DNA from: Promethearchaeota archaeon
Lineage (GTDB): Archaea; Asgardarchaeota; Thorarchaeia; Thorarchaeales; Thorarchaeaceae
Direction of reading: 5' to 3'
Assembly: GCA_014728035.1 (NCBI GenBank)
Contig: WJMJ01000131.1
Span: forward strand, 117,381 to 181,380
DNA: 64,000 bases
Shown: piece by piece, positions 29,244 through 40,003 of the stretch
Position numbering within the stretch: position 1 is the first letter of the stretch
Layout: each line of letters begins with the position of its first letter
Position numbers and translations under genes: made by a program
The notes under the pieces: model-generated
Seen by the model: the letters and a program-made list of their open reading frames with translations, nothing else
What the model was told of the DNA's origin: nothing
Databases searched by the model: none

Positions 29244-29487
29244 TCCACGATACACAGTAGTACACGTTCTACCCTTGGCAACTCTAGGTACTGGCGAGTT
29301 ACACTTTGGAACCGCACGCCTCGGACATTAGTAGCGGTGAGCTGAACACCTCGTCGAAACTTGGTGCTTACACCCCCGCCCTATTTACCTTGTCTTCTAC
29401 AAGAGTCCTCGTTTCCTAGCCACACGTTACTGTCACCAGTCCCGTGCTGCATTATGCGGCGCTAGTTAAGTGGATATCTAGTTTTGA

Positions 29488-29526
<39 letters not shown>

Positions 29527-29807
29527 TATGGCTTAGCTACCCCACGCTGCCCGATCGGACAATGGGTACACCATAGGCCACCACGATGCGTTCCTCTCGT
29601 ACCGGCATCCTGTTGCTCTCAGATATCCAACAGTCCTAATAGATAGAAACCGACCTGTCTCGCAACGGTCTAAACCCAGCTCACGTTCGATTTTAATCGG
29701 TGTGCACCCGCACCCTTCGGGCCTTATGCGACCCGAGGATATCAAGAGCCGACATCGAGGAAGCAAGCCGCGGGGTCGATAGGAACTCTTGCCCGCGACA
29801 ACTCTGT

Positions 29808-30023
29808 TTGGGGGTACCCAGAACGAATCTCAGACAGGAGAGCCTAGTTGTAAACTTGCTAAACTTACCAGCTCTCAAGCCTGCCGATAACTGTCGATCC
29901 GCGTTGCTATAAATACGGTCTCCCTTACACTCACATCAGAAAATCTGACGGTCATGTATCTTTCTTGGAAAGAGAGGGAGGTCGCACTTCTAGACGCGGA
30001 CACGACATTTACCGGGGGATACC
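29808..30023 (-). other. 23S rRNA intron 2 (216 nt, BHB-type, no ORF), between E. coli-equivalent A2450 and A2451
   Basis: GGGG-UA|G...GUAUCC/GGGUAC stem...CCCC-AA|A. Excision restores GGGGUAACAGAG. Confidence 0.88.
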
Positions 30024-30033
30024 TACCCCTGGG

Positions 30034-30065
30034 TTCCTCGAACTGAAGAGCGAATCTACAGTTCT
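30034..30065 (-). other. 23S rRNA intron 1 (32 nt hairpin, relaxed BHB), between equivalents of 2440 and 2441
   Basis: ACUU-AC|A-GAACUG...CAGUUC-GAGG-AA|C. Excision restores AAAACUUACCCCAGGGG, which pairs with the helix 74 5' strand. Confidence 0.8.
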
Positions 30066-32640
30066 GTAAGTTTTTTGTCATGTCTCGCCTGAACAATTGA
30101 GGAGCGAAACGTTCGCTAGGCCAGCGTTTCCGCCCTGTTCGCGTTATTGTGCGGCGAACAGTCAGCCAGACTATATACCCTTGATCTCTAGGAGACGTTT
30201 CCATCGCCTCTGAGTCTAGCATTGGTCAGGGCTGATCTCTTGTCAGCCCTGTGCCGCCCCAGCCCAACTGCCTACATGCAGGTGTCCCTAGGCTCGCTTG
30301 GCTTAGGTTAGCCAGCCCCAATGCCATAGTCAGTGTTACATGGTTGCATTCTCACACCCCGGAGAGTGTGATTCAACGCTCCTGACTACGCTCTGTATGA
30401 CACCAGAACTGGCAGCTACATGCTGCGTAGTAAACCTCCGCAGGGACTTCTCTTCCCATTAGGACTACATACACTGTTCGGTATGGTGTAGGTTCACCGG
30501 AGCTCTCCTGGGGACAGTGGGGCTCTCATTGCTCCCTTCATGCACGTCGGCATTTAACCGACAAGGCATATGGCTACCTTAAGAGACTCATAGTTAGTCC
30601 CGGCGTTAACCCGAGCTTAGACCCCTTCCGGAGTTTTGACTGACGGGCACAGACCAGGATTCACTGACTGTACTAACGCTTTCGCGCTCGCAGTCAGCTA
30701 TGTTTGTATTAAACAGTTGGAACCCCTGAGTTACTAAGACCTGGAAAGGCGTGAACCAATCCAGGCATGGCACATCCCGAAGTTACGCCACTAATTGGCC
30801 GATTTCCCTCAGGAGAGTTGACTCCGATACACCTTGGTCTTCTAAACCAGGGAACCTGTGTCAGATCTGGGTACGGACTAGGAGGATTCTTCCGAACTCG
30901 ATTTTCAAGGTCACCAGAAATCGGCTGAACGAGTGTCCGACCACTCGCTATTCCACTTTTCTTCTGCTTCTCACCATTACGGTACTCGACAGAGTTATAG
31001 TGTTAAACACCGCGAAGGCGGTGCTCAGCGTATCCAGATGAGTTACAAGTTCGGCATCGCGTTGCCGCGTAACGTACCTCCTAGGTTCAGGAATATTAAC
31101 CTGATTCCCTTTCGTGTTACTCGTGTTACGATAACACTTAGGATCGACTAAGCTTCGGCTGACGACGCATTGCCGAAGAACCCTTTCCCTTTCGGTGACA
31201 TGGATTCTCACCATGCTTCGCTGTTACTACTGCCAGGATCATCAAATCCGGTCGGTCAACGGGACCTCACGGCCCCACTTCTACCCAACCGGATCGCTCC
31301 GCTACCGGATCACGCAATTTTACTCGCGTGCCGTATGGTCTCGGTGACCAGATTTAGCCCCGTCCATTTTCAAGGCCGAGAGCCTCGGTCTGTGAGCTGT
31401 TACGCTTTCGTTCGGGGATAGCTGCTTCTAAGCTCACCCCCAGACTGTCTTGGGCTCTCGACTCCCTTCTTCACCGCACTTATCTGGTACTTAGGGACCT
31501 TAACCATACTCTCGGTTCTCCCCATCTCGGCCTGCCGGGCTTACCCCGGGCACCCGTCTCCTGCTGTCTACGGTTCGTGCAGATTCGGAGTTTTCAGGAT
31601 GGTGAAGAACTTTACGTTCCCCGAGCCAATCCGAAAGTGCTCTACACCACACGATACCTCAAGCAGGGCTTGGCTACGACCAACTTCGCGGAGAACGAGC
31701 AATCACCAGTCTAGATAAGCCTTTTACCCCTAGACCCAGTTCAACGGAACGAGTTGCACGTCAGAACCCTATCGGGCCTCCACCGAGCTTTCGCCCGGCT
31801 TCACCCTGACCAGGTCTAGATCGACTGGTTTCTCGTGTTATGGGAGTGACTACGCGCACTTTCACACGCCGCTCCTCACCCGAAGGTTGCGAGCATATCG
31901 GTTTCCCTACGGTTTCAGCTTGACGCCTTAACCTTGCCACGCCCATAAACTCCCTGGCCCGTGTTTCAAGACGGATGATGCTGACCCGATCCGCTTCGTT
32001 CCTACTATACGATCACTCGTAATTCGTTCACGAAGCCTCTCTTCTTTTCATCAGCATCCTTTGACTAGATTGCTGGTTTCAGGTGCTTTTCACCCCGCTT
32101 CCGCGGCACTTTTCAACTTTCGCTCGCGCTACATAGTTTACTATCGGTTTGGTCTAGTATTTAGGCTTCGCAGATTGTTACTGCGTAATTCACACGAGAT
32201 TACCAACCCATGCTACTCTGGTACTTGATAATGCCTGTAAGTTGCACCTACGGGGGTTTCACCCTCTATGCCCCGTCGTTCCAGACGAGTTCGGCTTCGT
32301 TACATAGGCATATGACTCAAGCCCTTACACCACATCTCCCATAACTCTTCGCTATGGGATTCAGTTTGGCCTTTTCCCCTTTCGCTCGCTGTTACTAAGG
32401 GAATCACTGTTGTTTTCTTTTCCTGGGCATACTAAGATGCTTCAGTTCTGCCCGTTCCCGTTCCAGATTTGACCCTGGAACGAAGCAGGGTATTAACCCA
32501 CTTCAGGAAGTCCAATTGGGGATCCTGCGGATCAACGCCTTCATGCGGCTACCCACAGATTATCGCAGCTTGTCGCGCCCTTCATCGGCTGACCAACCAA
32601 GTCATCCACCAACAACCGTTTAGCGAAACGCGGTCCTACT

Positions 32641-33622: not shown

Positions 33623-34333
33623 TTACAAATCAGTGTCTAATGTATCAGTTTGGATTTTTTGGAGGTCGGATATCCCTTTCACTGCAAGGTCCAATAGTTC
33701 ATCTAATGCGGACCGGTTGAATGTGCCATCTTCGCCAGTTCCTTGAACTTCAACAAATTCATCATCACGCATGACGATATTCATGTCAACAGACGCAGAA
33801 GAGTCTTCAATATAACAGAGGTCTAATAGACACTCATCATCAACTACTCCAACACTGACTGCAGCAACCTGTCCAATAAGAGGCAGTTCGGAAATCATAT
33901 CCAAATCAACCATTAATTGTAGAGCATCACAAAGTGCAATATAGGCACCAGTGATGGATGCGGTTCTTGTTCCGCCATCAGCTTGGATTACATCACAGTC
34001 TATCCGAATTTGGTGTTCACCAAGGTCACCAAGACTAACAGCAGCCCGAAGAGACCGGCCAATCAATCGCTGAATTTCTTGGTCGCGACCACTGATTCTA
34101 TTCCTCCTGGTACGCTCATTGGTTGCGCGAGGGAGCATTCCGTATTGTGCAGTGACCCACCCCTTTCCAGTTCCATTTAGCCAACCAGGAACATCTTCTT
34201 CCACAGTTGCAGTACAGATAACTTGGGTGTCACCAGTCTTAATCAGTACAGACCCTTCAGGATGTTTAAGAAAGTCACGAGTGATATCTACTGGTCTCAA
34301 TTCATCATTCAATCTACCGTCAGACCGGGCCAT
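33623..34333 (-). CDS. rph: Ribonuclease PH (bacterial type)
   Basis: RSDGR..DELRPV, EGSVL, GWVTAQYGMLPRAT, EIQRLIGRSLRA, CDVIQADGGTRTASITG, EVQGTGE. Confidence 0.95.
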   Translation of the reverse strand: MARSDGRLNDELRPVDITRDFLKHPEGSVLIKTGDTQVICTATVEEDVPGWLNGTGKGWVTAQYGMLPRATNERTRRNRISGRDQEIQRLIGRSLRAAVSLGDLGEHQIRIDCDVIQADGGTRTASITGAYIALCDALQLMVDLDMISELPLIGQVAAVSVGVVDDECLLDLCYIEDSSASVDMNIVMRDDEFVEVQGTGEDGTFNRSALDELLDLAVKGISDLQKIQTDTLDTDL

Positions 34334-34465
34334 ATTAACCACAATATGGTTGAACATATTGTCTGCTATTAACGCTATTGACGTGTAGTCACCAAATAGC
34401 TTTATTGATAAAAGAGGAAACAATACAATGAGATTGATGTAAATAACATTGGAGCGACCAAAATA

Positions 34466-35488
34466 ATGATGGATGTTCGTGGCAGATTCAACACCGCCCT
34501 AAAAGATACAGTCGAAGAATGGAAAAAGAAGGATACTGTGAAAGGCGTATATGTTCATGGCTCATACGTGAAAGGTATAATCTCACCGAATTCAGACCTT
34601 GACCTCTGTGTAATTATGGAGGCAGATGAGGCTCCCGCACAACTACTTGCGAAGTATAAAGGTGTCATGATCGATATGACTTTCTTCACCCCTGAAGATG
34701 TACAAGATGTGGTCGAGGGAAACACCCACGATATGGTTAAGATTGCTTCAGTAGTAGGTCAGTTACGAAATGCAGAAGTGCTATACGATAAAGAGGGAAA
34801 ACTCAAGAGTTGGCAGAAGGATGTTTCAACATATCAATGGCCCAAGGAATCAATCCAAACAGCAAAAACTGAGGCGATAGAAGCTTTACAAAGTGCGTCA
34901 GCCTTTGCTGCAGAAGAAGACATAATCAGTGCTGTTTACGAAATAAGAGAAGGCCTTTTTGAACTTGGACGAGCAGTGTTGATGAAGAATAATAATTTCT
35001 GTGTGATTAAACCTGCTGAAATTCTTACAGAAATTCGAATGATGGACCCAATGACTTACCAGCTGTTCCTCAGAACGTTCAAACTCAAAGGACTAGGAGA
35101 GAATGAGCTTCTAGACATGCTAGAGGATATCAAAGCATGGATCAAGAAGGCTGAAGAGTTATTTGATGCTGAATCATCTGACATTGCGGCAACAATCATC
35201 CTATCGGATGCGCAGAGATCCACGTTCAGTGCGATTAACCTAACACTAAATGGAGATTATGAGTTAGCAGTATTTGAGCTAAGACTAGCAATACGAAAAC
35301 TGGGACAGGCATTGCTCGCAATATCAGGAGAAACAACTTTCAATGCACGTACATTTATCAGTGATATAAAAGAGCATGAGCCAAATTTCTATAATAACAT
35401 CTTAGTGAAATATGGAGCTTACGAGTTTCATCCGAAGGGTGTGAAACGAAGTATTGGAGAAGCAGAATTCATAGCAAAAAGAATATGA
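34466..35488 (+). CDS. Pol-beta-family nucleotidyltransferase with tandem HEPN-like helical domains
   Basis: HGSYVKG...SDLDL...D motif, then two helical repeats (AVYEIREGLFELGRAVL; AVFELRLAIRKLGQALL). Confidence 0.8.
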   Translation: MMDVRGRFNTALKDTVEEWKKKDTVKGVYVHGSYVKGIISPNSDLDLCVIMEADEAPAQLLAKYKGVMIDMTFFTPEDVQDVVEGNTHDMVKIASVVGQLRNAEVLYDKEGKLKSWQKDVSTYQWPKESIQTAKTEAIEALQSASAFAAEEDIISAVYEIREGLFELGRAVLMKNNNFCVIKPAEILTEIRMMDPMTYQLFLRTFKLKGLGENELLDMLEDIKAWIKKAEELFDAESSDIAATIILSDAQRSTFSAINLTLNGDYELAVFELRLAIRKLGQALLAISGETTFNARTFISDIKEHEPNFYNNILVKYGAYEFHPKGVKRSIGEAEFIAKRI

Positions 35489-35528
35489 GACTGAAGATTG
35501 ATATGGGAGCTGTTGTTTTTCTACAAAA

Positions 35529-36077
35529 GTGGTGACAATGTCCGAATCCGATGTAGAAGTGATAAAACTCATGAGTGTTGCGCTAAATTACGAGAAACAA
35601 CTTGTCCTTAAGACAGAGATTGAAGCATATCACAATGCCACAAATTATGTGATAGAACAAATTCTTAAAATCAGAAAGAAGAAAGCGTCCGAAATAATTG
35701 AAGCAATTGGTGATGAATTCTCTGAAAAGTTCGATTCCCGCACAGCATATTTGAAAGATGTGGTCAAGACCGCTCGTGTTACAATTGGAGAGCACAAACA
35801 GAAAGCAAGATGGAGAAGGGATTTGAAGAATAAAGTTCCCAAATTCAAACCAAATATCATGATTTTCTCAGCACCACTGATAGAGATTTCACATGAAGCA
35901 GCATTTCTCACTGTCAAGAGTGGAGAACAGAAAGCAATTCCATTCGATAAGCATAGCAGAAACAAGAACAAAGAGATACTTTCTGAGATTATAAAAGACC
36001 CAAAGAAAATGGATAGAGTACGGTTAATGTGGAATAAAGAAGGTTACTTCAATGTTGACATCCGTGTATTCAGATAG
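35529..36077 (+). CDS. TnpB/Cas12f N-terminal (WED/REC) lobe-like protein lacking RuvC
   Basis: LKTEIEAYHNATNYV...EKF...KVPKFK...IPF...VRLMWNKEGYFNVDIRV, then stop. Confidence 0.65.
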   Translation: MVTMSESDVEVIKLMSVALNYEKQLVLKTEIEAYHNATNYVIEQILKIRKKKASEIIEAIGDEFSEKFDSRTAYLKDVVKTARVTIGEHKQKARWRRDLKNKVPKFKPNIMIFSAPLIEISHEAAFLTVKSGEQKAIPFDKHSRNKNKEILSEIIKDPKKMDRVRLMWNKEGYFNVDIRVFR

Positions 36078-36975
36078 TCCAGCATTTCAATGCACCTGAG
36101 AATTCAGTTGTGTAGAACTTCTTACCTTTCGAATCCCAAGACACTCCACTTACTCCAGTAGGAAGTTTCTGGTGGATAGATTCACTGAAGTCGTTAGCCC
36201 ATAATTGAATTGTTGTATCATAGCTCGAAGTGAGTAAACTTGAATCGGACGGATTGAAGCTGATTGAGCTGACTACATCAGTGTGACCATCAAGAATTAT
36301 TGGTTTTCGGTCATTAACTAAATCAAGAATAACAACGGAACCGTTGTGAAGGCCTAATGCAGCTTTTGTGTGTTCTGGAGATATAGCAAGAGATCGTATT
36401 CTATTATCACTCTGAAATATATTTTCCACTAACTCATATGATGATAAATCCCACAAGTTACATTTGCCAGACCAAGACGCCGTAATTAATTTGCTATCCC
36501 CAGCATAGAAAGCAAGACCAGAGATGTCACGCCGATGAAAATGAAGATTTCTAATGCATTTGAGTTTCTTGAGAGAGAATAACTTGACCAGACCATCACG
36601 AGTTCCTGCGACAGCTTTTGAAATAGTCGAGTCTACTGCAAGAGCTTTGATATCACAACTATGACGAAGGAGATGACTCTCCTTGAACTTCTTTGACGCT
36701 AACCACATTCTTGCGGTTCCATCCCAGCTGCTCGATAAGAGGTGAGATCCATTTTCAATAAAAAGCAGTGAGGAAATCATCTTTTCATGGCCGCTCAATG
36801 CAAGACGAGGTTTGCGAGTTTTGGAGTTGATAATGATGATTTGCCCATCGAGACTGCCGACCGCAACGAGATTCTTTGTAGGACTGACCGAAACACAGGT
36901 TAATGGTACAATTTGAGAGCTAGTTGGAAGGTAGATTGTAGTGGCCTGCATACTTGTCACTCCGAATATTATCAA
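36070..36975 (-). CDS. WD40 repeat beta-propeller protein
   Basis: GH...LLSSSWDGTARMW and GHTDVVSSISFNP...SSYDTTIQLW; about 7 blades. Confidence 0.92.
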   Translation of the reverse strand: MIIFGVTSMQATTIYLPTSSQIVPLTCVSVSPTKNLVAVGSLDGQIIIINSKTRKPRLALSGHEKMISSLLFIENGSHLLSSSWDGTARMWLASKKFKESHLLRHSCDIKALAVDSTISKAVAGTRDGLVKLFSLKKLKCIRNLHFHRRDISGLAFYAGDSKLITASWSGKCNLWDLSSYELVENIFQSDNRIRSLAISPEHTKAALGLHNGSVVILDLVNDRKPIILDGHTDVVSSISFNPSDSSLLTSSYDTTIQLWANDFSESIHQKLPTGVSGVSWDSKGKKFYTTEFSGALKCWTI

Positions 36976-37014
36976 TGCATAGTTATTCGTTTACAAGATA
37001 AAAAGTCTAACCAC

Positions 37015-38073
37015 TTACTGTTGACGACGAATAATAAAGTAAGAAACAATAACAAGAGGTATTGCGATAAGAATAACAAGAAAATCTAAAGGGGTTTCTT
37101 GTGGAAAATCAGAAACATCGGGGAGATAATCAACAACGAAGACTTCAACCACGCGACCTACTGCTTGTAAACTGGCTGCACTACATTTATCGGGTGTATC
37201 CTCAATAGTATGCCAAGTGGATGGAAAGGGGTAATGAATTAGATCAACTGCTGGAATATCTGCATCTAGGAAAGGAATATGGTCATCTGTTATTCGTCCA
37301 CCAGTTTCATTGAGGAAAATACTATCATAGCCAAACTCGTGGGCTATCGACCAAATGGTGTTTTGCAAAGAGGGGAATTGCATCGAGTTCTGCTCTTTTG
37401 GAATGCGCAGGTTTGCATCTCCAACCATATCTAATAGAACCATAGCTGCAATTGAGTCAATTCGGTCAGCAGATAGTTGGCTAACAAAATATCTTGAACC
37501 TTGAATCCAATCCCAGCCATCAATATTCCCAGAGTCTTCTGCATCAAAGAATACTAACTCGACATATGAACGAACAGCTTCAGGCAATACTTTCGCAAGT
37601 TCAAGAAGTACTGCCACGCCACTTGCACCATCATTTGCTCCAAGAACAGGCAAATTATGATTTGCAGGATTGGGATCATTATCAGCTTTAGGTCGTGTGT
37701 CATAATGGGCTCCCAAAATCATGGTAGAGTTAACTTCCGGACCCCATCTTGCGAGTATGTTGCTGCAAAGTGTTTCTTGATAAGTGAAATTCTGTAGAAT
37801 AACCTCCCAGCCATTGAGTTCAAGTTTATCTACAATATAAGATCGACAGTCACTGAGATTTTCTGACCCGGGAGGACGTGGTCCAAAATCACATTGGTCG
37901 TAAATATATTGAAGCGCCTCTTCTCCATTGAAAACGGGACTATAGTCATCACCGATAACCACAGGTATGTGTGGGATACCCAGCAAGAAAATGATGAGAA
38001 GCGACGAATATTTCAAAGATACACCATCAAATTCTGTACCAACGTCCCCTAAGAATCTTTTTGATAAAATCAC
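37015..38073 (-). CDS. M28 peptidase / glutaminyl cyclase-like, exported and TM-anchored
   Basis: GAHYDTR, GANDGASG, FFDAED, LLDMVG, DDHIPF, WHT. Confidence 0.9.
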   Translation of the reverse strand: MILSKRFLGDVGTEFDGVSLKYSSLLIIFLLGIPHIPVVIGDDYSPVFNGEEALQYIYDQCDFGPRPPGSENLSDCRSYIVDKLELNGWEVILQNFTYQETLCSNILARWGPEVNSTMILGAHYDTRPKADNDPNPANHNLPVLGANDGASGVAVLLELAKVLPEAVRSYVELVFFDAEDSGNIDGWDWIQGSRYFVSQLSADRIDSIAAMVLLDMVGDANLRIPKEQNSMQFPSLQNTIWSIAHEFGYDSIFLNETGGRITDDHIPFLDADIPAVDLIHYPFPSTWHTIEDTPDKCSAASLQAVGRVVEVFVVDYLPDVSDFPQETPLDFLVILIAIPLVIVSYFIIRRQQ

Positions 38074-39287
38074 GTAATATAAGACCTAATCTTGCTTCTC
38101 AACAATCTTGGCAATTCCCGGGGCAATAGACGAAGTGCGGTAGCTGGAATATCACCATATCCAATCTCACCTCTAGCAACTTTAGCCATAATTTCAGCTG
38201 CTAATGGATGACCGTTAATTTTAGAAAGGAGTCTATCTACAAGTACAGAACTCTGAGGTCCAGCCCATTCCGCCATCCCAAAACTGGATCCGAACACATC
38301 ATGACATAGATTATGATATTTAGAAAGATACTGTTCATCGTGGCGATTAGCACTGATAGCATCCGAAATAACTTGTGCGGCAAACACTCCAGATTGCATG
38401 GCATATGCAATCCCTTCGCCCATCATAGGATCAACAAATCCAGCAGCATCTCCAACTAATATCACACGATCCAAAACATTCTTGTGTTTTAATCCATCCG
38501 CACCCAAGAAAAACGTTCGCAACTTTTCAGGAACCAGTTCAATATTTGCTTGGTTTTCGATGTGCTTACAGAAATCATAGAATTTGGGACGGAGTGGAAG
38601 TATATCGATCCCAGGGCCCGCAATACCAATAGCTAGATGTTCTCGTTTTGGAAAAACCCATCCATAACCCAGTTTGCCCTTTAGAGGTTGAATTGATAAG
38701 ATGTGAGGGTTATTGTCGGTACCTTTTGCAACACCCTCTTCACCAACATAAAAATCAGACTCCATTCCAAGACCATGACGGGTCAAATCTTTTCTTTTAG
38801 GACGCAGACCCAAAGATCTACTGATCACCGAATTAACTCCATCCGCACCAATCAAAAATAATCCTCTAATATCAGCACCATTTTCTAGTTTGACACAAGC
38901 AGAATGCTCTGACACTTGAGCACTTACAACACGGGAGTCTTCCATCAAAATAACCCCAGCATCTTCTGCTCTTCTAGCTAAAAATTCATCAAACTTATTA
39001 CGAAATACAGTAATGCCAATCAACTTATCAGATACAAATTCAACAGTTGAAGAACTACTAGGAATTTGGAATTTTAAACCATAGATTTTTTGCTCTATGA
39101 TCTCGGTTGGCAGGTTTCCATTTATGACTTTTAATCCACGAAACATTACTGCACCGCCGCAAGGTTTCTCGCGAGGCAATACGAACTTTTCAATAAGAAT
39201 AGTATCTAGATTTCGTTTAGCACATTCATAAGCTGCAATAGACCCAGCAGGTCCAGCCCCCACAACAATGACATCATATTCAGTCAA
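38070..39287 (-). CDS. Geranylgeranyl reductase family FAD oxidoreductase
   Basis: GAGPAG, KPCGG, GYGWVFPK, GDAAGFVDP..GEGI. Confidence 0.92.
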   Translation of the reverse strand: MTEYDVIVVGAGPAGSIAAYECAKRNLDTILIEKFVLPREKPCGGAVMFRGLKVINGNLPTEIIEQKIYGLKFQIPSSSSTVEFVSDKLIGITVFRNKFDEFLARRAEDAGVILMEDSRVVSAQVSEHSACVKLENGADIRGLFLIGADGVNSVISRSLGLRPKRKDLTRHGLGMESDFYVGEEGVAKGTDNNPHILSIQPLKGKLGYGWVFPKREHLAIGIAGPGIDILPLRPKFYDFCKHIENQANIELVPEKLRTFFLGADGLKHKNVLDRVILVGDAAGFVDPMMGEGIAYAMQSGVFAAQVISDAISANRHDEQYLSKYHNLCHDVFGSSFGMAEWAGPQSSVLVDRLLSKINGHPLAAEIMAKVARGEIGYGDIPATALRLLPRELPRLLRSKIRSYIT

Positions 39288-39367
39288 ACTACTCTCTCCA
39301 AAACTGATTAGACAGATATCGAATCGTCTATCAAAACCTTTTTACAAAGGAATAAAAATTTGACGAC

Positions 39368-40003
39368 TCAAATATCACGACATTTTTCACAGCCAGGCCT
39401 TGGACGAAGACCCAACCGCCGCATTATTTTGCCACCAGGTAAATCAGCCGATGTATCTTGTTCAGGAGTAATTTGAACGTCCACTTCTCTTGTTCCAACT
39501 TGCTCAAATCCATATGCCATAATCAACATCTGAGAAGGGGTATTTTCTTCGTAGACCTCACAATAGACCTCTTCAACCCCAGCATCTAGAAAGTATTTTG
39601 ATGCACGTTTTATCAGAGCTGTAGCAATCCCTTTTCTTCTACGAGATGGGAGAACGCCAATACCAGTAATTTCTCCATACACTGAATCCTCTTCCTTTTC
39701 AACAAAACATGCAATGAATCCAGACAGTTTGCCCCATAGTTCTGCTACAAAAATACCCTCGGTATCGAGTTTCTTTGCTTGCTCGAGATTTATGGGGCAA
39801 AATGGGTCAGGAGACGCAAGAAAACATCTGTTGTAAAGGTCTACAAAGGATTCCAAATCATCATGTACCAATTTGCGTACATGAATGTAATTAGGAATAG
39901 TCTTACTATCCCACCATTCTTCAGCCAAGTCTAATGCTACTTTCGCCTCAGCCTTCATTATGAGATAAGAACGGGTGACACCATCCAAGTCAGACTCTGA
40001 CAT
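39368..40003 (-). CDS. GNAT acetyltransferase
   Basis: IGVLPSRRRKGIATAL motif A; N...YGF; C-terminal CEKC. Confidence 0.88.
   Translation of the reverse strand: MSESDLDGVTRSYLIMKAEAKVALDLAEEWWDSKTIPNYIHVRKLVHDDLESFVDLYNRCFLASPDPFCPINLEQAKKLDTEGIFVAELWGKLSGFIACFVEKEEDSVYGEITGIGVLPSRRRKGIATALIKRASKYFLDAGVEEVYCEVYEENTPSQMLIMAYGFEQVGTREVDVQITPEQDTSADLPGGKIMRRLGLRPRPGCEKCRDI

Follow-up and report, generated by a model that had tools for sequence, protein, structure and literature searches.

To our knowledge, every described domestication of the transposon nuclease TnpB has left the RuvC scaffold in place, since much of the guide RNA is held by it; this applies to Cas12, Cas12k, TldR, the sigma-factor-associated Cas12f, and Fanzor. 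In the TnpB of ISDra2, the WED domain is composed of residues 1-12 and 117-176, the REC domain of residues 13-116, and RuvC starts at residue 185; only WED and REC take part in reading the TAM duplex, while RuvC is required together with WED for the omega-RNA scaffold and together with REC for the heteroduplex channel (PMC10097598). The exapted TnpBs that have been described (TldR, the sigma-, flagellin-, and DppD-associated proteins, Cas12k, and Cas12m) retain RuvC (PMC10691335, PMC10705468), and the most reduced of them is without RuvC-III only (PMC10691335). The first-pass annotation of the DNA studied here had likewise stated that domesticated TnpBs such as TldR keep an inactivated RuvC, in agreement with these two reports. 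No description of a stand-alone TnpB recognition lobe was found in the literature on exapted TnpBs.

The window, that is, the whole stretch of 64,000 nucleotides from a Thor-type Asgard archaeon that was analyzed in this study, carries a gene for such a lobe in the following arrangement.

33623..34333, minus strand: bacterial-type RNase PH gene, divergent from the nucleotidyltransferase gene (TIGR01966, 339 bits; conserved neighbor)
34466..35488, plus strand: nucleotidyltransferase of 340 aa, KNTase/ANT(4')-like, carrying two helical bundles at its C-terminus (Pfam NTP_transf_2; AlphaFold2 model, pLDDT 90.9; Foldseek)
35497..35506, plus strand: conserved spacer motif in the version of this genus, ATTGATATGG (comparison of the spacers of 19 loci)
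35531..35535, plus strand: Shine-Dalgarno-like GGTGA upstream of the ATG (a pentamer over-represented at -15 to -6 of host-genome gene starts)
35538..36077, plus strand: stand-alone TnpB-type recognition lobe gene (WED-REC-WED), 179 aa (ORF, starts of homologues, AlphaFold2 model, fold matches, and hhalign to TnpB)
35553..35576, plus strand: WED strand beta1, residues 6-13 (DSSP of the AlphaFold2 model; aligns to the first residues of Cas12f/TnpB)
35589..35813, plus strand: REC helical bundle, helices 18-45, 50-64, and 69-92, between WED beta1 and beta2 (AlphaFold2 model, alignment)
35856..36071, plus strand: rest of the WED beta-barrel, strands 107-136, two short helices, and strands 158-178 (AlphaFold2 model, alignment, VIA-align)
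36070..36975, minus strand: convergent WD40 beta-propeller gene (ORF listing, Pfam, locus comparison)

We consider it probable (roughly 0.8) that the gene encodes a domesticated descendant of an IS200/IS605-type TnpB that consists of the recognition lobe only and now binds nucleic acid without cutting it. The protein is a TnpB lobe, it has lost the nuclease half, and it has been under long-term selection, so that a conserved "hypothetical protein" from Thor-type archaea can now be named. As for its function, we infer a basic, non-cutting nucleic-acid-binding protein. The first-pass annotation had proposed an exapted TnpB-derived DNA- or RNA-binding protein; domestication and clean truncation at a domain boundary stand, and the binding function is the part of that proposal that goes beyond the observations.

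The 182-aa frame that had been annotated from GTG (35529-36077, plus strand) is present in the ORF listing, and its translation contains all the N-terminal motifs quoted at the time (LKTEIEAYHNATNYV, SEKF, KVPKFK, IPF, and RVRLMWNKEGYFNVDIRV). Translation more likely begins at the ATG at 35538, which would give a protein of 179 aa, with the GTG 9 nt upstream as the alternative, since the ATG is preceded by the Shine-Dalgarno-like GGTGA, the homologues start with the equivalent Met, and the database protein P0001 is 179 aa long. The start assigned at first pass is thus corrected from 35529 to 35538 as the likelier position. The gene ends with TAG at 36075-36077 and shares its last 8 nt with the 3' end of the convergent WD40 gene, and the nucleotidyltransferase gene directly upstream ends at 35488 on the same strand, both as originally described. 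The protein contains no cysteine. In the alignment of 30 family sequences, 9 positions are invariant and a further 19 almost so, and the pI is 9-11 for 29 of the 30 members.

The AlphaFold2 model of the lobe, for which the 30-sequence family alignment was used as input, has a pLDDT of 93.8 and a pTM of 0.87 and is predicted to run from beta1 through three long helices into a beta-barrel with two short helices. The most conserved block of the family, DVVKTARVxIG, lies in the REC bundle, and the conserved IPFDKRSRN and RVRLxW motifs are located in the rest of the WED barrel. The REC-in-WED topology of ISDra2 TnpB is the same as that of the model (PMC10097598). In a Foldseek search against the PDB, the best match had an E value of 7e-7, with TM scores of 0.66-0.69 by query, and down to an E value of 1e-2 all matches were Cas12f, TnpB, Cas12k, or other Cas12-type effectors. 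With VIA-align, the whole model (residues 4-179) was aligned in each comparison, namely to residues 3-212 of SpCas12f1 (Z 14.8, 170 residues, rmsd 3.5), residues 1-209 of AsCas12f (Z 13.7), and residues 2-175 of ISDra2 TnpB (Z 11.3). A structure search independent of Foldseek, covering 48,161 PDB representatives, returned Cas12, TnpB, Fanzor, and TranC proteins at all of ranks 1-32, with Z scores from 13.3 down to 5.0, and the first unrelated chain appeared at a Z of 5.0. In the ESM Atlas, the model reached a TM score of 0.79 to TnpB clusters. The match to the WED-REC part of TnpB and Cas12f is thus strong and specific, and the resemblance to a TnpB N-terminus, which had been perceived by eye, lies far above chance in the model, Foldseek, VIA-align, and hhalign. 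Because the model aligns to residues 2-175 of ISDra2 TnpB, in which WED ends at residue 176 (PMC10097598), the lobe ends at the boundary between WED and the linker, where TnpB goes on into the linker and RuvC-I, as the first-pass annotation had claimed.

At the sequence level, neither the single protein nor the family profile had a significant match in Pfam or among PDB sequences, and the relationship between the lobe and TnpB is visible only to fold and profile-profile methods. A weak NCBIfam match to TIGR01765, the TnpB N-terminal model (E value of 0.007), recurs in 6 of the 30 family members, and a weak match to Cas12f2 also recurs. When 1.84 billion cluster representatives were searched exhaustively with phmmer, only 18 matched, and the family is therefore narrow. 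Among 301 genomes of the phylum, the family profile matches the N-terminus of a 436-aa ORF from another Asgard family (E value of 2.8e-7), which contains a Cas12f1-like TNB domain and a weak OrfB_IS605 match and has 82 relatives, several of which are named TnpB by their sources. The Asgard TnpB profile matches solved Cas12f and TnpB chains, only in RuvC/TNB, which identifies the group of 82 relatives as bona fide TnpBs. When the lobe family was compared with 22 full-length Asgard TnpBs by hhalign, family positions 9-161 were paired with TnpB positions 9-172 at 17% identity (Prob 95.9, E value of 6e-9). The full-length Asgard TnpB closest to the lobe family (L030:1839-3149, minus strand) is located between AAA ATPase and PAC2 genes, and its stop overlaps the start of the gene for PAC2, a proteasome assembly chaperone. 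Given this overlap and no obvious room for an omega-RNA, that TnpB may itself be immobilized.

The nuclease half has left no trace at the locus. In the lobe itself, the RuvC nuclease domain (RNase H fold with a D-E-D triad) is absent, with no Pfam OrfB_IS605 match, and no TNB/zinc-ribbon domain was found, as there is no PF07282 match, no cysteine, and no relic. In the six frames of 34001-39500, the Asgard TnpB profile detected no relic of RuvC or TNB; its sole match was the lobe gene, at profile positions 4-154, so that the absence of a frameshifted RuvC asserted at first pass is borne out. Where relatives lack the WD40 gene, the convergent M28 gene follows the lobe stop after only 45-65 nt; given this and the WD40 overlap in the window, there is no space for a decayed nuclease half, and none for a cis omega-RNA, the latter also in line with the earlier annotation. 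Rfam matched only the 23S rRNA in the window, and no guide RNA was found at the lobe locus. The further claim that tnpA is missing was correct as well, since none is present near the single-copy lobe gene, whose neighbors encode RNase PH, the nucleotidyltransferase, the WD40 protein, and the M28 peptidase. Both flanks of the lobe gene are protein-coding in every locus examined, and no Cas12f-type association with a CRISPR array or tracrRNA was seen there.

The lobe gene was found in 71 of the 76 genomes of its Thor-type family, in all 16 genera sampled, and completeness is 84-88% for the five in which it was not detected. It is single-copy, except that 2 of the 76 genomes gave two matches. The family profile detected the gene in none of the 225 other genomes of the phylum; three gave weak matches, two of which are the N-termini of full-length TnpB-like proteins and one of which is junk. 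The gene order in every locus examined is RNase PH (minus strand), nucleotidyltransferase (plus), lobe (plus), an optional WD40 gene (minus), M28 (minus), and further genes, and it is constant even for members of the lobe family with 28-35% identity. The syntenic block comprises about 10 genes, including those for the M28 peptidase, an FAD reductase, a GNAT, and PNP. The WD40 gene is missing from its position in several genera (L007, L016, and L043-L047) and is not part of the conserved pair; it is accordingly a later insertion between the lobe and M28 genes. The conservation of length and synteny that the first-pass annotation had set out as a check thus extends across the family at one locus. 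In several genera, the REC bundle is enlarged by some 50 inserted residues, which brings the protein to 232-240 aa (L019-L022; P0004, P0005, P0007, and P0009-P0011). A single-sequence search for longer homologues revealed no fused form. The 377-aa member P0016 (L046:5001-6134) was considered as a full-length form and rejected, as its C-terminal part consists of helical repeats with no Pfam match and is not RuvC. These repeats (RxxDRPWEVL...) occupy the place of RuvC in TnpB. The ESM Atlas contains bacterial clusters of N-lobe-only proteins of 178-184 aa, with 51-225 members from Bacillota and Cyanobacteriota and TM scores to the lobe model of 0.74-0.80 on both sides, which could represent fragments of genes or additional recognition lobes that stand alone.

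The lobe gene is under purifying selection and has been kept over the long term. Its dN/dS values are 0.13, 0.17, 0.16, and 0.08 (Nei-Gojobori, dS of 0.4-0.8) in the four close, unsaturated pairs on which the estimate rests, all other pairs being saturated; in the same pairs, the values are 0.07-0.09 for the nucleotidyltransferase gene and 0.09-0.11 for the WD40 gene. The lobe is thus near its neighbors and shows no neutral decay. One genome of the sister family, from the same order, was searched, and the lobe gene was not found there, although the orthologous nucleotidyltransferase is present (E value of 8e-87) and is followed by genes for a small membrane protein and profilin. A 102-aa ORF 3' of that nucleotidyltransferase was tried as a lobe homologue and proved unrelated. 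The profilin-like gene (L038:3363-3749, plus strand) adjoins the nucleotidyltransferase gene. The presence of the nucleotidyltransferase without a detected lobe fits a single acquisition of the lobe, at the base of the family, downstream of the nucleotidyltransferase gene. We picture the following history. An IS200/IS605-type TnpB lost RuvC, the TNB/zinc finger, the C-terminal tail, and the cis guide RNA, and retained the WED OB-barrel, into which the REC helical bundle is inserted. In the ancestor of one Thor-type family, this gene was probably fixed once, 3' of the gene for the KNTase-like nucleotidyltransferase, and it has since been kept in single copy under purifying selection.

As to what the lobe does, we tentatively favor a model in which the WED-REC cleft reads a short motif in duplex DNA independently of a guide and the protein would act as a transcription regulator. 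This mechanism is preferred because reading of the TAM duplex is the only activity of TnpB that lies wholly in WED and REC. The spacer between the nucleotidyltransferase and lobe genes provides a candidate for such a motif. It is 28-170 nt long and otherwise unconserved, but the consensus aGATTGATTAGG is present in 19 of 19 spacers (L004-L022), and in most loci the motif ends about 30-38 nt before the lobe start codon. This 10-12-mer contains TTGAT or ATTGAT, and TTGAT is the TAM of ISDra2 TnpB (PMC10097598), a match that may be a coincidence. In a k-mer survey of promoters, in which gene starts are approximate, the motif sits in the TATA zone of the host genome; the SAH hydrolase gene has a similar sequence, ATTGATATAG, at the same distance from its start, and the promoter of the nucleotidyltransferase gene is conserved equally well. 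In the simplest reading of these sequences, the motif would be the TATA-like core promoter of the lobe gene itself. Alternatively, considering the TTGAT in the motif and the ability of WED and REC to read a TAM, the ATTGAT-containing element in the promoter region of the lobe gene is a candidate operator of the lobe, or it could be what is left of the IS target or left end. Across the genome, the motif shows no enrichment (228 observed versus 204 expected), and so no regulon is visible.

It may also be considered that the lobe is the RNA-binding subunit of an RNA 3'-end module, in which it would present a structured RNA (tRNA, rRNA, or other) to the nucleotidyltransferase and RNase PH would act on the same substrates. 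We regard this possibility as somewhat less likely than the DNA-motif reading and as the main alternative to it. The nucleotidyltransferase gene is the immediate upstream neighbor of the lobe gene, on the same strand, in every locus examined. The RNase PH gene is oriented divergently to it and lies about 1 kb from the 23S rRNA gene (29309-32631, minus strand). This RNase PH is of the bacterial type and not the exosome subunit Rrp41; its ORF as listed reaches 34423, but the family model begins at residue 33, and its true start is therefore probably near 34333. The linkage of RNase PH and nucleotidyltransferase persists in the sister family, with two TldD/PmbA genes between them. In addition, the second protomer of Cas12f is resolved only as a 175-200-residue N-lobe in several structures (7wju_B, 8dzj_B, 9nzt_B, and 9nzp_B). 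Presumably this N-lobe sits on the sgRNA scaffold, which means that a lone lobe could hold RNA. However, the block of about 10 genes is wholly syntenic, so adjacency alone does not prove that the lobe and the nucleotidyltransferase work together and may reflect inherited order only, and the lobe gene seems to be served by a promoter element of its own. The fold of the nucleotidyltransferase is also nearer to small-molecule and protein nucleotidyltransferases than to RNA-tailing enzymes; its Foldseek matches are 3c18 (uncharacterized), ANT(4'), LinB, and the defense enzyme HalB. Of 19 orthologues of the nucleotidyltransferase, 17 retain an intact hGS...DxD...D signature, which is lost in one genus (L006:2171-3193 and L011:399-1421), in which GS has become GA and DxD has become VLD or TLD, and in L006 the third Asp has been replaced by Ser as well. 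In that genus, the lobe gene is kept although the GS and first-Asp catalytic residues of the nucleotidyltransferase are gone, which speaks against a joint enzymatic module, and the retention of both genes after the loss of the catalytic signature hints at a non-enzymatic role of the nucleotidyltransferase there.

Another proposal is that the lobe is a trans partner or regulator of resident TnpBs, acting as a dominant-negative binder of omega-RNA or TAM, as a second protomer, or as one half of a split TnpB. Potential partners are available, as TNB-domain ORFs are present in 62 of 77 family genomes (0-45 matches each), with four in this genome, in which three long ORFs match the Asgard TnpB profile. 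An apparent absence of TnpB from this genome in the PF01385 search was rejected as a failure of sensitivity, since PF07282 and the Asgard TnpB profile find three to four. Cas12f, which acts as an asymmetric dimer (PMC10097598), offers a model for the second-protomer role. Nevertheless, G014 and G016 (91% and 95% complete) have the lobe gene and no TNB match, the copy number of the lobe is one whatever the number of TnpB matches, apart from the two genomes with two matches, and the family profile is blind to the N-lobes of the resident TnpBs at E <= 0.01, which are hence not close relatives. Taken together, these points make a role as a partner or split half improbable.

We give equally little weight to the idea that the lobe uses a guide or scaffold RNA encoded in trans and forms, with the nucleotidyltransferase, an RNA-guided, non-nucleolytic modifying system. 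If true, programmable targeting would have outlived the complete loss of RuvC; in a less radical version, a TAM-reading lobe would have turned into a conventional archaeal transcription factor. Very improbable is an ancestral WED-REC protein that was never fused and is a relic of the module later joined to RuvC. No observation speaks for it directly, the 17% identity of the hhalign alignment being too low to read the direction of evolution from it. The lobe is confined to one family-level lineage, with nothing in the 225 other genomes of the phylum except the three weak matches and no lobe found in the sister-family genome that has the nucleotidyltransferase, and the 18 phmmer matches contrast with TnpB, which is found throughout bacteria and archaea (PMC10691335). 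Finally, a decaying, functionless remnant of an IS200/IS605 element confined to this genome, a reading invited by the missing RuvC and by the N-lobe-only clusters of the ESM Atlas, one of which is named "Transposase (Fragment)" and which indicate that truncations do arise, is refuted by the family-wide retention of an intact, single-copy gene at a fixed position in 71 genomes and 16 genera, with dN/dS of 0.13-0.17, invariant residues, and a confident fold.

Returning to the domesticated recognition lobe, its comparison with known systems can be summarized as follows. With the TnpB of IS200/IS605 elements (ISDra2; PDB 8EXA, 8H1J, and 8BF8) it shares the WED OB-barrel with REC after beta1, in the same topology and length, and with the archaeal and Asgard TnpB clade (P0020-P0101) it shares profile-level homology over the first ~170 residues. 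Unlike TnpB, it is without the linker, RuvC, TNB/zinc finger, C-terminal domain, cis omega-RNA locus, and TnpA, and its gene is single-copy, immobile, and vertically inherited, in contrast to those of IS elements. The best structural matches are to Cas12f (AsCas12f, SpCas12f1, and OsCas12f; PDB 8J12, 9I8Y, and 9NZT), with Z scores of 13-14.8, but the lobe has neither the nuclease lobe nor the zinc-finger insertion of Cas12f, and no CRISPR array was seen in its protein-coding flanks. TldR and the other exapted TnpBs are, like the lobe, immobilized, host-retained TnpB descendants that are unable to cut, and a regulatory role is plausible for the lobe too. However, they keep the RuvC scaffold, in mutated form, and an adjacent guide RNA (PMC10705468, PMC10691335), whereas the lobe has no NUC lobe, no retained inactivated RuvC, and no guide locus or room for one beside it. 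The nuclease-less lobe is therefore a form of TnpB domestication that we could not find described in the literature. Its maintenance by selection across an Asgard family marks the recognition lobe alone as an independently useful module and adds a new route from transposon nucleases into host biology, and at 179 residues and free of cysteine it offers a scaffold for asking whether such a lobe by itself suffices for TAM-type DNA reading or for binding a scaffold RNA.
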